Positions 685-18,902 of a stretch of DNA of 64,000 nt are shown piece after piece. A program made the position numbers and the translations under genes. Every line of letters starts with the position of its first letter. Within the stretch, counting starts at the first letter, position 1. Origin of the DNA: Glaucostegus cemiculus (Eukaryota); the NCBI GenBank assembly GCA_976551045.1, contig CDPCPM010000377.1, forward strand, positions 1,798,001 to 1,862,000, read 5' to 3'. Under the pieces are notes generated by a model. The model searched no databases. It was not told the origin of the DNA and saw only the letters and a program-made list of their open reading frames with translations.

Positions 685-834
685 GACCATGAATTGGCAT
701 TGAAGAGAATAGCCGACGATCGTGAAAATCTGAAAGCAAAATCACTACCAACCTGCCAGCCTGCTCCTCCTCAGCAGGGCCAGAGGTTAGGTGGCAAACT
801 TCACACAGCAGTAGGAAAACATTGCGTACTAATG
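685..834 (+). CDS. UBX-LRR gene exon: charged helix and GQRLGG motif
   Basis: ttgtag|GAC...ATG|gtgagt; [19 protein letters not shown]...QQGQRLGG...HCVLM; joins in phase 0 to the UBX exon. Confidence 0.85.
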
Positions 835-3800
835 GTGAGTTGTGCCAAGCCTGTGTTCTCCCAGGACCATGCACGTATTTTATCAGCTCATTACTCTGCT
901 TGGGAATCTAAAGTCAGAAACGCCACCTGGTGCAAGTCTGAAATAAAAGCAGTAGATGCTGGAAACACTCAGCAAGTCGGGCAGCGTCTGTGGAGAGAGA
1001 AATGGAGCTAATGTTTTGGGTTTGGGACCCTTCAGAACTCGGGGAAATAGCCCTTTCCCAGTTCTAACAAACAGTTCCAGACCCGACCTGCTGTGGTTCC
1101 AACATGTACTTCAGTTTTTATTCCTCCCTCCCTCTCTCCCTCAACATAGAACATTACAGCACAGTACAGGCCCTTCGGCCCACAGTGTTTTACCAACACT
1201 TTATCCTGCTCTGAGATCTATCTAACCCTTCCCTCTCACATAGCCCCCATTTCTCTATCATTCAGGTGTCTATCTAAGAGCCTCTTAAATGTCCCTAATG
1301 TATCTGCCCCCACAACCTCTGCCGGCAGTGTGTTCCACGCACCCACCACTCTGACATCCCCCCTCATTCCTCCAATCACCTTAAAATGATGTCCCCTTGT
1401 GTTAGCCATTGTCACCCTGGGAAAAAGTCTCTGACTGTCCACTCAGTCTATGCCTCTTATCATCTTGTACACCTCTATCAAGTCACCTCTCATCCTCCTC
1501 TCCAAAGAGAAAAGCCCTAGATCGCTCAACCTATCCTCCTAAGACGTGCTCTCCAATCCGGCAGCATCCTGGTGAATCTCCCATGCACCCTCTGAAGCTT
1601 CCACATCCTTCCTGTAATGAGGTGACCAGAACTGAACACAGTTCTGGCTTCTTGAATGCCTCACTACTACTCCCCTCAATCACTCCTTGTGGAAACATTC
1701 ATGTTTTCTTGCTGCTGTCCGGGTTGTGGATTCTTTGGTATCCTATACACGTGTCCACGCTCCCTCTACTGACTGTCTCCTTCCTTCAGATCAGGCTTCC
1801 ATCGGGAGACTCCCTGCGGGAGAGATTCCAGGAGGAAGACACACTACAAAGCGTGAAGGAGTACATCACACAGCGGTGCCCTGAGCTTCAGTCCCTCTCC
1901 CTCCTCCAGGGCTTTCCCAAGAGATGCTTCACAGACTCCGAGCTGGGCAGCACATTGGCAGACTTGGGGCTGAGTCCCACTGCCACACTGTGCGTGCGGA
2001 GTGAGCAGCGCACGGCTACTGGTTCCCCAGACCTGCCGCCAGGCGCCTACACCCTGAGGACGACCAGTGATACCAGCAGGGACGTTGCTGTGCAGAGCGC
2101 TGTAGCAGAGCGGCAGGTGGGAGCTTCTGAATCCCAGCACCACTCACATTCGTGGCCCTCCCCTCACCGTGCCTGGGGGCGAGGGGAGGCTCTGGGTTAC
2201 CGGGGAATCGACAACCTGCCACTCTCTAACGCGGAGCAACCTCCAGCTGTCCCAGGATACAGGAACCAGCCAGATGTGAGAGAGGCCATGATGCCAGGAC
2301 TAATGGAATCTCCGTCAAGATCGAGGTCAACACACAGCTGGGGTAAGAAAGGTGTGAGGCTCTGTGTGTGGGAGGCCATGCACCAGGGGCACTGTCATCA
2401 AGCTGTCCATTACCCTCATGTGAATCAAACCTTGGTGCATCTTGTACACTGAATGAAGTTACTGTGGGCAGGTAGAACCTGTTACCATTTACCATAGTAC
2501 TCTCCACATTGTCGCCTCAAACTCCCAGGGCAGGGAGTACAGGTTAGACACAGAGTAAGGTACAAAGTACATTCCCATCACGTACTTCCAGGGAAGGGAC
2601 AGCACAGATTAGAAACAGAGTAAAGCTCTCTCCACTCTGTCTCGTCAAACACTTCCTGGGCAGGGCCAGTATGGATTCAATACAGAGTAAAACTCCTGCG
2701 TTGTCCTGTCACATACTCCCAGGGCAGGGAGTTAGGTTAGATGCAGCGGAAACCCTCCCCTCCACCATTCCATGAAATGCCTAACATTGAGTAAATTGCC
2801 TTGTCCTGGGTTTGCCCTGTCCCACAGCAGTTGCACACTGAGCGCGATTGGCAGCTTTACAAATTGAGCCTCACTTTCAACACCGGCACTAGCTAGATGG
2901 ACAGTTTGGATTGCGAATTTGATCCCACTGTGTGAGTTGGATTCCCGGTATGGAATCCTCAACATCCAGTCTGAAACTGAACTCTTTCCATCTGCTAATT
3001 CCACGTTGTTTGTGTGTTATTCTTTACACAGGGCGGGGACAGAGGTTGGCACCAGCTGGGAACAGCAGCCAGCCCGATGAAGAGGAGCCCGATGAGCATA
3101 TCGCGGATGTGGAGGCAGAGAATCTCATCCCACAGCACCTGCTGATTCCTCCCGGTTAGCCAACCCAGATAAACTCGCTAAACATCCTAGAATGCTTTAC
3201 AACCAGCACAGTGTTGCCACTGTCTTATGTAGGAAACGCAGCGGTTTATTTACAGAAGCTGTGTGATTGTCACCAGAGGGTTGCTGCAAATGTCAGCAGG
3301 GAATTTTTAAAGCAACATTTTTTGACACCAGGGGAACTCCCCTCCTCCTCAGAATAGTGGCCCGGGATGAGGCCCTGCAAGGTAAATATAAGGAATTAGG
3401 AGATAAAGAGCAGGACCTCAATGATAGTAACCTCGTGATTCCTACCAGTGCCATGTCCTGTTTCTTGCACGTGGATCTGATGAAGAGATTGTGCAGAAGG
3501 GAGGGATTTGGATTTCTGGGACGGGCTGTTGGGAAGATGCTACCTGCACAATTCGGATGGGTTAGTCCCAGTCCTGCCTGGGACTGATGACATGGGGTTA
3601 AACAGCACGGAAACGGGCCCTTCAGCCCAACTCGTCCATGCCAACCCAGATGTTTATATAAAATAATCCCATTTGCTTCCATTTGCCCCATATCCCTCTA
3701 ATCTTTTCCTATCCAGGTACCTGTCCAAATGACTGAAATGTTGTAACTGTGCCTGCCTCTGGCAGCAGGTTCATTACTAGGACTGGCAAACATCAACATG

Positions 3801-18800: not shown

Positions 18801-18902
18801 CTGATGGCAAACTGCCCCGGAATCGCCAGCATCCGTGCCCACAACCTGCGCGCCCTCCCTCTGGACCAGGCCTCTGATGAGGAGATGGTGGCTGAGGACT
18901 GA
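685..18902 (+). CDS. Spliced gene, 5'-partial: UBX domain + SHP-like motifs + BC/Cul2-box-like segment + LRR protein. join(685..834,1790..2342,3032..3154,3902..3998,5281..5483,9050..9292,9915..10013,11777..11970,13057..13231,14245..14401,14961..15114,17928..18039,18721..18902)
   Basis: 13 exons, all AG/GT-flanked with matching phases; 2442 nt in total = 813 codons + TGA, no internal stop. UBX-type IRLPSG...[10 protein letters not shown]...[15 protein letters not shown], followed by repeated LxxLxLxxT/C-I/V-S/T-D LRR units. Confidence 0.9.
1145..1640 (-). mobile_element. CR1 LINE 3' fragment
   Basis: DSQRLFPRV...TRGH...GAWNTLP; aacatagaacat tail. Confidence 0.85.
1790..2342 (+). CDS. UBX-LRR gene exon: UBX domain plus linker
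   Basis: ccttcag|[38 protein letters not shown]...QGFPKRCF...; donor G|gtaaga. Confidence 0.9.
3032..3154 (+). CDS. UBX-LRR gene exon: acidic linker
   Basis: tacacag|GG CGG GGA CAG AGG TTG completes HSWGRGQRL across the splice; donor G|gttagc. Confidence 0.8.
3902..3998 (+). CDS. UBX-LRR gene exon
   Basis: cttctag|[41 protein letters not shown]; donor AG|gtgggt. Confidence 0.8.
5281..5483 (+). CDS. UBX-LRR gene exon containing BC-box-like VPSLFNLA
   Basis: gctgcag|G GAG GAG; ...[21 protein letters not shown]; donor G|gtgtgt. Confidence 0.82.
5680..7045 (-). mobile_element. CR1 LINE RT fragment
   Basis: [32 protein letters not shown] with frameshifts. Confidence 0.88.
7048..7255. repeat. 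Dispersed short element with long inverted arms (possibly Penelope-derived); other copies at about 945-1100, 24710-24850, 40165-40970, 47935-48420, 49230-49350, 56050-56260, 58040-58330 and 59015-59120
   Basis: Left arm gatgctggaa...gagcaac...gaac(c)tcagc...gagcagcatctgtgg is the reverse complement of right arm acagatgctgctcgacc.gctgagtt..ctccagca. Confidence 0.7.
7565..8020 (+). mobile_element. Rex1/Babar-like LINE 3' fragment
   Basis: [25 protein letters not shown] plus a conserved 3' UTR; UTR-only copies at about 9545-9830, 24080-24180 and 42000-42230 (-). Confidence 0.75.
8560..8880 (-). mobile_element. Rex1/Babar-like LINE 3' fragment
   Basis: [13 protein letters not shown]...[20 protein letters not shown]. 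Confidence 0.75.
9050..9292 (+). CDS. UBX-LRR gene exon: Cul2-box-like helix and first LRR
   Basis: ccctag|[51 protein letters not shown]...[13 protein letters not shown]; donor G|gtacag. Confidence 0.9.
9915..10013 (+). CDS. UBX-LRR gene LRR exon
   Basis: ttctag|[38 protein letters not shown]; donor G|gtttgt. Confidence 0.88.
10595..11470. mobile_element. Two CR1 3' fragments, tail to tail (+ 10595-10820; - 10940-11470)
   Basis: [11 protein letters not shown] on +; [12 protein letters not shown] on -; gttcta/tagaac tails. Confidence 0.8.
11777..11970 (+). CDS. UBX-LRR gene LRR exon
   Basis: tcacag|[20 protein letters not shown]...[13 protein letters not shown]...[10 protein letters not shown]; donor |gtcagt. 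Confidence 0.88.
12120..12858. repeat. 40-bp minisatellite, about 18 copies
   Basis: Unit gggccccacacacacactgacccccccctcgctgggagat. Confidence 0.95.
13057..13231 (+). CDS. UBX-LRR gene LRR exon
   Basis: ccccag|[31 protein letters not shown]...; donor G|gtaagt. Confidence 0.88.
13795..14120. repeat. 51-bp minisatellite, about 6 copies
   Basis: Unit tctaacctgccctgggactgtgtgatgggacggtgtggagggaacagtgga. Confidence 0.93.
14245..14401 (+). CDS. UBX-LRR gene LRR exon
   Basis: gcccag|[22 protein letters not shown]...[20 protein letters not shown]; donor AG|gtgagt. Confidence 0.88.
14961..15114 (+). CDS. UBX-LRR gene LRR exon
   Basis: gtgcag|[39 protein letters not shown]...PHLQ; donor |gtctgc. 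Confidence 0.88.
15390..16430. mobile_element. CR1 fragments (- 15390-15650; + 15740-16430)
   Basis: [34 protein letters not shown]; gggccgaagggcctg 3' UTR. Confidence 0.8.
17928..18039 (+). CDS. UBX-LRR gene LRR exon
   Basis: ccgcag|[46 protein letters not shown]; donor G|gtactg. This frame is missed by the ORF track. Confidence 0.85.
18170..18620 (-). mobile_element. CR1 fragment
   Basis: Degenerate CR1 RT C-terminal region on the minus strand. Confidence 0.65.
18721..18902 (+). CDS. UBX-LRR gene last coding exon
   Basis: ttccag|[29 protein letters not shown]...EEMVAED*. Confidence 0.87.

Follow-up and report, generated by a model that had tools for sequence, protein, structure and literature searches.

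A ray gene that may join an Elongin BC-Cullin2 substrate receptor and a p97 adaptor in a single protein

Introduction

Can one protein choose a substrate for ubiquitylation and also bring it to p97? This question is raised by a gene of the ray Glaucostegus cemiculus, located at 685-18902 on the forward strand of a stretch of 64,000 nucleotides (assembly GCA_976551045.1, contig CDPCPM010000377.1, positions 1,798,001 to 1,862,000), which as a whole is called the window here. An original prediction, made from the letters of the window, had read in it one spliced frame with a UBX domain, a BC box, a Cul2 box and leucine-rich repeats (LRRs), and had proposed that a single chain links an Elongin B/C-Cul2 substrate receptor to p97. 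The gene itself, its splicing in a relative, its domain order and its conservation were all observed directly. The proposed interpretation is supported by a match to the VHL box of ZYG11, by a model with Elongin C, by single contigs that carry both parts and by a UBA domain, and we find it somewhat probable that the chain as a whole acts as an Elongin BC-Cullin2 substrate receptor with its own p97 adaptor. Both halves are of known kinds and what is new is their union on one chain.

Results and Discussion

Inside the window 13 exons encode 813 aa and a stop codon, which is the spliced length that had been predicted, with AG acceptors and GT donors at every exon:

685-18902 (+): part of the gene inside the window, exons 5-17 of 17, coding for 813 of 942 aa, by similarity the orthologue of si:ch73-173p19.1
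Window exons 1-7 (+): 685-834, 1790-2342, 3032-3154, 3902-3998, 5281-5483, 9050-9292, 9915-10013
Window exons 8-13 (+): 11777-11970, 13057-13231, 14245-14401, 14961-15114, 17928-18039, 18721-18902
Four exons upstream of the window: L003 9480-9497; L002 1636-1742, 2974-3131, 8643-8746

The four upstream exons carry the start codon, most of a long helix and the UBA domain, which had been expected there by the original prediction. The frame is open across all 17 exons and gives a total of 942 residues with one stop. A gapless alignment to the RefSeq-named protein si:ch73-173p19.1 of Pristis pectinata (P0001) shows identity at 757/813 residues, and at the level of sequence the ray gene is the orthologue of this fish gene. 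When the ray's own genome (2.85 Gb) was queried with exon 6, the present locus was the sole match (2/2 candidates scored). A candidate exon near 4436-4614 was dropped because it gave stops in each phase tried; the 97-nt exon at 3902-3998, which restores the frame, was chosen for this reason and later received RNA support at the joint 3998/5281.

No RNA run was listed for the ray itself, and splicing was followed in RNA runs from a related species, in which raw reads cover five of the first six joints, the exons compared being those up to 10013. The joint 834/1790 is spanned by 19 and 13 raw reads (runs X7 and X8), 3154/3902 by 29 and 3, 3998/5281 by 15, 10 and 11 (X7-X9), 5483/9050 by 12, 5 and 10 and 9292/9915 by 18, 8 and 12, almost all spliced reads being on the strand expected for the gene. 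In addition X1 and X3, whose nature as RNA is a guess, each yielded a single contig, of 2906 and 3126 nt respectively, with the window exons 1, 2, 5 and 6 in order. The 219-220 nt between exons 2 and 5 in these contigs equal the summed length of exons 3 and 4, and the joint 2342/3032, which is absent from the raw-read joints shown, is implied only by this spacing. The claim of one spliced frame was thus borne out, as the UBX exons and the box and LRR exons are ordered on single contigs with their joints in raw reads, and the idea that they belong to separate transcripts failed. Some database entries are split or incomplete, for example those of Octopus vulgaris and Latimeria, and one might suspect that the fusion is an annotation artefact in which a UBXN1-like gene was joined to an adjacent LRR gene. 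However, raw-read joints and single contigs cross the UBX-to-LRR span, RNA contigs yield full-length proteins, which are also known in many phyla, and the frame of 17 exons is open. This explanation is largely refuted and we regard it as extremely unlikely. As a separate observation, fragments resembling short and long interspersed elements (SINE- and LINE-like) in the introns at 900-1700 and 5600-9800 collect RNA reads hundreds of times more numerous than those on the exons; these reads come from copies elsewhere.

The elements on the p97 side are located as follows; here and below, counts out of 45 refer to alignment A3 of 45 family members:

685-741 (+): end of the 45-residue charged helix before UBX, conserved L-x-x-I-x-x-D-R
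820-1999 (+): UBX domain, aa 46-120, intron 835-1789 within, PF00789 E 2.3e-15 on exon 2
1790-1807 and 1913-1924 (+): UBX beta-1 Arg codon (within the first range) and F-P-K-R loop
2174-2194 (+): SHP-like motif 1, W-G-x-G-x-x-L, absent in the teleosts and coelacanth of alignment A1
2339-3048 (+): SHP-like motif 2, W-G-x-G-x-x-L, intron 2343-3031 within
3973-3996 (+): SHP-like motif 3, W-P-x-x-G-N-R-L
5342-5356 (+): A-A-x-x-R helix, partial VIM-like motif, Arg 93% conserved

PF00789 was matched in 45/45 members, and the UBX fold aligns with that of FAF1 (Z 12.4, root-mean-square deviation (rmsd) 2.1, 80 residues aligned). The predicted R...FP(K/R) signature was recovered too, with the beta-1 Arg and F/Y-P each present in 44/45 and the third loop position being R in 30, H in 7 and K in 6; the ray protein has F-P-K-R. 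This Arg and the F-P loop are described as needed for binding of the p97 N-domain (PMC10641518). The charged helix that had been seen before UBX is a 45-residue helix in the model (residues 87-131), in which an Asp is invariant (45/45) and an Ile 96% conserved. Together with the UBX domain this coil matches the C-terminal region of FAF1 (11ta_M), whose helix before UBX is reported to position UFD1 (PMC13696688). The UBA domain lies near the Pfam cut-off, with P0068 passing and P0001 below; at E-values up to 1, UBA_7 was matched in 38/45 and UBA in 29/45 (best 7.7e-07), and it was modelled as three helices with a predicted local distance difference test (pLDDT) of 94-97. Two further short conserved motifs are Q-x-L-G-G before UBX (window 772-795) and A-F-N-P-P after UBA (P0001 residues 50-53).

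The part following UBX had been called a long linker. It is indeed disordered (pLDDT under 50), but it also contains three conserved SHP-like motifs and the AAxxR helix. Among 26 vertebrate relatives identity is 55%, 82% and 83% for motifs 1, 2 and 3, compared with 16-31% in the surrounding linker. The pattern [FW]-G-x-G-x-x-L occurs 50 times in 37/45 proteins, where 0.35 would be expected by shuffle, and the strict SHP consensus aromatic-x-G-x-G-x-x-L given in PMC8181520 and PMC5559722 occurs 17 times in 17/45, compared with 0.72 by shuffle; several invertebrates have F-x-G-x-G-x-x-L in the region aligned to motif 3. AAxxR is present in 31/45, and the full VIM motif R-x5-A-A-x2-R was found in 4/45 and not in the ray gene. 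By analogy with known adaptors, it is very likely that the protein binds p97 through UBX and the SHP-like motifs.

The receptor part follows in this order:

5435-5470 (+): BC box S-L-x-x-x-A-x-x-x-A/V, key Leu codon 5441-5443
9085-9114 (+): cullin-box-like helix, hydrophobic pattern retained, Thr at the Pro position of the Cul2 consensus
9175-18860 (+): LRR solenoid of 16 repeats, exons 10-17 of the gene

The BC-box leucine, Leu474 in the numbering of P0001, is invariant (45/45) and forms one of ten invariant columns. Measured against the consensus (S,T,P)LXXX(C,S,A)XXX-hydrophobic (PMC4878042), the BC box is complete in 27/45 if an Ala at the last position counts as hydrophobic, and Leu with C/S/A at +4 is found in 38/45; the ray gene reads S-L-x3-A-x3-A. 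The Cul2-box consensus hydrophobic-P-xx-hydrophobic-xxx-hydrophobic is present strictly in 19/45 and without regard to the Pro in 40/45, and the cullin-box helix is 89% identical among vertebrates.

The ray's own genome has separate genes elsewhere that, judged by their translations, are presumably ZYG11 and ZER1. A profile of the box region (76 residues) gave 21.9 bits against the N-terminus of this ZYG11, a value reached by 0/500 shuffles (best 12.0), and the match is in register, the BC box and the cullin box each lying on its counterpart. In a structure alignment residues 467-784 of the model superimpose on residues 10-328 of ZYG11B (9lk2_A) with Z 19.7, rmsd 4.0 and 284 residues aligned; ZYG11B appeared in this one comparison, the other Foldseek lists being dominated by generic LRRs or by UBX/ubiquitin folds. 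The parallel to ZYG11B that had been drawn for 5432-9170 is supported by these two matches. Neither single exons nor six full proteins matched a VHL, SOCS or F-box family of Pfam, and no VHL, SOCS, F-box or ARM family is found among the 25 most frequent of the 47 Pfam families matched in the 45 members. This silence on the VHL box fits, because CUL2 receptors are described as lacking a signature domain shared by all of them (PMC13015453). When PDB sequences were searched with the cullin-box exon, only ribonuclease inhibitor came up (E 0.21).

The complex was modelled from residues 466-725 of P0001 (248/260 identical to the ray gene) and a skate Elongin C. It passes with a score of 0.72 (runs 0.73, 0.71 and 0.72), compared with 0.09 for the best of three controls; at least 88% of the contacts are shared between runs, and the pLDDT of the partner is at least 84. 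The score mark is reached by 51/78 solved and 2/108 mismatched microbial pairs and by 71/105 solved and 2/126 unrelated pairs from eukaryotes. The tightest predicted contacts are made by Leu474 and Ala478 (+4) with Y81, L108, L109, A112 and L115 of Elongin C. In the ZYG11B complex L18 and C22 are held by Y76, L103 and L110 of Elongin C (10.1101/2024.06.24.600508), and these are the Y81, L108 and L115 of the model with an offset of 5 taken from P0155. Judged by this model, we see a strong likelihood that the helix of the BC box binds Elongin C in the manner of ZYG11B. One Elongin C locus was found in the ray's own genome (on C7), and two other genes of this genome (L004 and L005, on C10 and C84 of G000) are presumably SKP1-like, judged by their translations.

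An array of about 12 LRRs had been predicted after the box; the array is there, but the model shows 16 LRR strands at residues 533-904 with a pLDDT mostly over 85. LRR_6 and LRR_4 were matched by Pfam in 45/45 members, and the chain ends after LRR 16 with no ARM domain. Two conserved patches are formed by non-structural residues: Asp, Tyr, Tyr, Thr and Ser in repeats 1-3 (80-100%), and Pro-x-Arg (96-98%), Asp (91%), Tyr (78%), Asn (96%) and Asp-Arg (80-87%) in repeats 9-12. As the LRRs of ZYG11B are reported to face the cullin (10.1101/2024.06.24.600508), the patch of repeats 1-3 may by analogy do so as well, and the patch of repeats 9-12 may bind the substrate.

Several points weigh against a Cul2 receptor coupled to p97. 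The vertebrate cullin box has no canonical Pro, the ray gene having Thr. The box profile gave 5.2 bits with the first exon of ZER1, which 6/500 shuffles reached as well, and profile-profile comparisons with single ZYG11 or ZER1 exons were weak and without significance (probability 3.9% with E 0.011; 0.2%; 1.1% over a narrow alignment). F-box LRR folds outrank ZYG11B in the structure alignment (FBXL2 Z 31.7, FBXL17 Z 28.0). The Elongin C pass may reflect likeness to BC-box complexes rather than binding, because such complexes are already solved, and the score mark was calibrated on pairs that include no near homologues of a partner, for example SKP1. Each of the three SHP-like motifs of the ray gene departs from the published SHP consensus at one place, which is why we call them SHP-like. 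Finally, a chytrid carries the whole protein, while fungi were reported in 2009 to have only Cul1, Cul3 and Cul4, with Cul2 and Cul5 being animal-specific (PMC2785787).

The fold ranking bears on the possibility that the helical box is a divergent F-box and the protein an FBXL-type receptor of SKP1-Cul1 (SCF) fused to a p97 adaptor. FBXL2 and FBXL17 are the top sequence and fold matches, with an alignment that begins at the cullin-box region (residue 488-489) and runs over their F-box region, members are called F-box/LRR-like in some databases, and plant 'F-box/LRR' clusters are found among the Atlas neighbours of the box region. The nearest of these neighbours are plant LRR clusters of 420-580 aa and a Zer-1-like cluster (0.92-0.94), and a second Atlas query gave no match at 0.9 or above. 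On the other hand, the Pfam families named above include no F-box, and the matched region is preceded by an extra, invariant BC-box helix, which is the predicted Elongin C interface, so that we consider an F-box quite improbable.

The missing proline bears on a second alternative, in which Elongin C and p97 are both bound but the cullin is a different one, namely Cul5 in animals, or Cul3 as has been reported in Elongin complexes of yeast, or a cullin that depends on the lineage. The consensus Pro is missing in 26/45, the chytrid has the whole protein although Cul2 and Cul5 were reported to be confined to animals, and in yeast a complex of Cul3 and Elongin has been described (PMC2785787). Moreover, the fold of yeast Rad7 from Rad7-Elc1 matches with Z 25.7 and ranks above ZYG11B, over the LRRs only (525-883). 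Against this, the layout of box, helix and LRRs aligns with ZYG11 from the first box residue, LRRs are described as the dominant domain of CUL2 receptors (PMC13015453) and 19/45 members fit the strict Cul2-box consensus. We regard the use of another cullin as unlikely, and recruitment of Cul2-Rbx1 by the cullin box in animals as reasonably probable by analogy.

A third alternative keeps the p97 adaptor and gives up the ligase: the LRR would pick clients directly and Elongin BC would just stabilise the fold, or the box would be a decoy that keeps the Cullin2-RING ligase (CRL2) inactive, a role proposed for UBXN7, and p97 may then remodel the protein itself or the ligase rather than a tagged substrate. 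The p97 half indeed has four to five contact elements, beyond the needs of a simple hand-over, and UBXN7 is known to sequester neddylated CUL2 (PMC3349548). However, the UBA and the cullin-box helix are both conserved throughout the family, as would be expected if one complex makes and reads ubiquitin chains, and this alternative, too, appears rather unlikely to us.

In the favoured scheme, a Cul2 receptor with its own p97 adaptor, Elongin BC would bind the BC box, Cul2-Rbx1 would be recruited by the cullin box in animals, and the concave LRR face would hold the substrate for ubiquitylation, with the UBA domain binding the ubiquitin chain as it grows. UBX and the SHP-like motifs, placed on a long flexible linker, would hold on to more than one N-domain within a single p97 hexamer, and by analogy with FAF1 UFD1 may be positioned by the helix that precedes UBX. 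p97 would then pull the tagged substrate from its complex without release. For this last feature, a hand-over in cis without release, we see even chances.

Compared with ZYG11B and ZER1, the ray protein has the same three-helix VHL box directly before the LRRs and the same predicted Elongin C contacts as ZYG11B, but it has 16 LRRs instead of 10, its box is internal and follows a p97 module of 470 aa, and it lacks the ARM domain, which in ZYG11B bears the Gly/N-degron pocket (10.1101/2024.06.24.600508). The order UBA, long helix, UBX is that of UBXN1/SAKS1, UBXN4 and FAF1, SAKS1 being described with a long helix between UBA and UBX (PMC10641518), whereas the UBX of the ray protein is not terminal but lies in mid-chain and is followed by SHP-like motifs, BC and cullin box and LRRs. 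UBXN7/UBXD7 links CRL2 to p97 through UBA and UBX (PMC3349548); it attaches in trans, through its ubiquitin-interacting motif (UIM), to the NEDD8 that many cullins carry, whereas the link in the ray protein would be within one receptor. UBX and multiple SHP boxes on one chain that reach neighbouring N-domains are also known from the SEP adaptors p47, p37 and Shp1 and from UFD1 (PMC10641518), but the ray protein has no SEP domain and the motifs of its family are mostly one residue shorter than the SHP consensus. Rad7-Elc1, FBXL2/FBXL17 and the plant LRR clusters have a similar LRR solenoid, and no UBX or UBA match was seen for them. The nearest other single UBX exon in the ray's own genome (L024, 59.6 bits) is presumably UBXN1.

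A search with exon 6 gave 243 matches among 369 candidates, and the 120 listed ones belong, where named, to cartilaginous and bony fish, coelacanth, lungfish, amphibians and turtles. Next, 1.84 billion representatives were compared with a profile built from 27 vertebrate proteins. From the best 150 listed, 147 were examined (three already in hand being excluded), and UBX and box were found in 43, the box only in 5, UBX only in 1 and neither in 98, whereby 38 of the 43 had helped to build the sub-profiles used to score them. Thirty representatives were looked up and come from lizard, snake, tuatara, frog, fish, lamprey, tunicate, hemichordate, echinoderms, molluscs, centipede, hydrozoan, two sponges, Capsaspora, Chromosphaera and the chytrid Borealophlyctis, with 4 being nameless. 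The chain of UBA, coil, UBX, box and LRRs is thus found in reptiles, amphibians, fish, invertebrates, sponges, Capsaspora and a chytrid, and the survey of orthologues proposed across chordates has traced one architecture from lizard to sponge, Capsaspora, Chromosphaera and chytrid. The protein is ancient, being present from a chytrid and Capsaspora to reptiles, and from this conservation an old substrate is implied.

With a turtle query 321 matches were obtained among 8000 candidates scored, and the 120 listed, 9 of them with no organism given, run from turtles over squamates and amphibians to fish. Mammals, birds and crocodilians are not named among these 120, and the gene was likely lost in the three groups. 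That a receptor working in cis from CRL2 to p97 is opisthokont-wide, older than animals, kept from sponge to lizard and lost in these three groups, with an LRR that reads a conserved substrate, is a tentative picture to which we give slightly less than even chances. The gene is already present in RefSeq and UniRef for many species, as uncharacterised or with misleading automatic names, and zebrafish has an orthologue (P0465). The name si:ch73-173p19.1 was found in no paper of the searched literature, most subscription journals being outside its coverage, and a literature search for UBX, LRR, BC box and p97 in one architecture gave a human survey and general reviews.

Other features of the locus are the following:

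41256-55324 (-): acid-sensing ion channel (ASIC) gene, tail to tail with the UBX-LRR gene, PF00858 E 5.6e-28
About 26100-35300: GC-rich, fragmented pieces resembling non-LTR (long terminal repeat) retrotransposons, one frame matching reverse transcriptase, PF00078 E 2.7e-08
12119-12859, 13794-14117 and 19106-19783: minisatellites, periods 40, 51 and 52
L037 3081-4082 and L036 3085-4086: two near-identical actin genes with a 334-codon exon each, 10 kb apart, about 26-37 kb upstream of the window

The minisatellites at 13794-14117 and 19106-19783 have a common unit, which is related to a dispersed repeat elsewhere in the introns. A record from green turtle (P0092) joins the UBX-LRR protein to an ASIC, and this fusion record suggests that turtles have the same ASIC neighbour, which is a landmark for locating remnants of the gene in mammals and birds.

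Conclusion

If the favoured scheme is true, ligase and p97 would be coupled in cis, in contrast to the trans coupling by adaptors such as UBXN7, and the protein would make it possible to study, in a simple system, the passage of a ubiquitylated substrate from ligase to unfoldase. The range of the gene also bears on the time at which Elongin-cullin complexes arose, which a 2009 survey dated to a late stage, with separate origins for animals and fungi (PMC2785787). Its apparent absence from mammals would explain why surveys centred on human have overlooked it, and as zebrafish has an orthologue, the question can now be approached.

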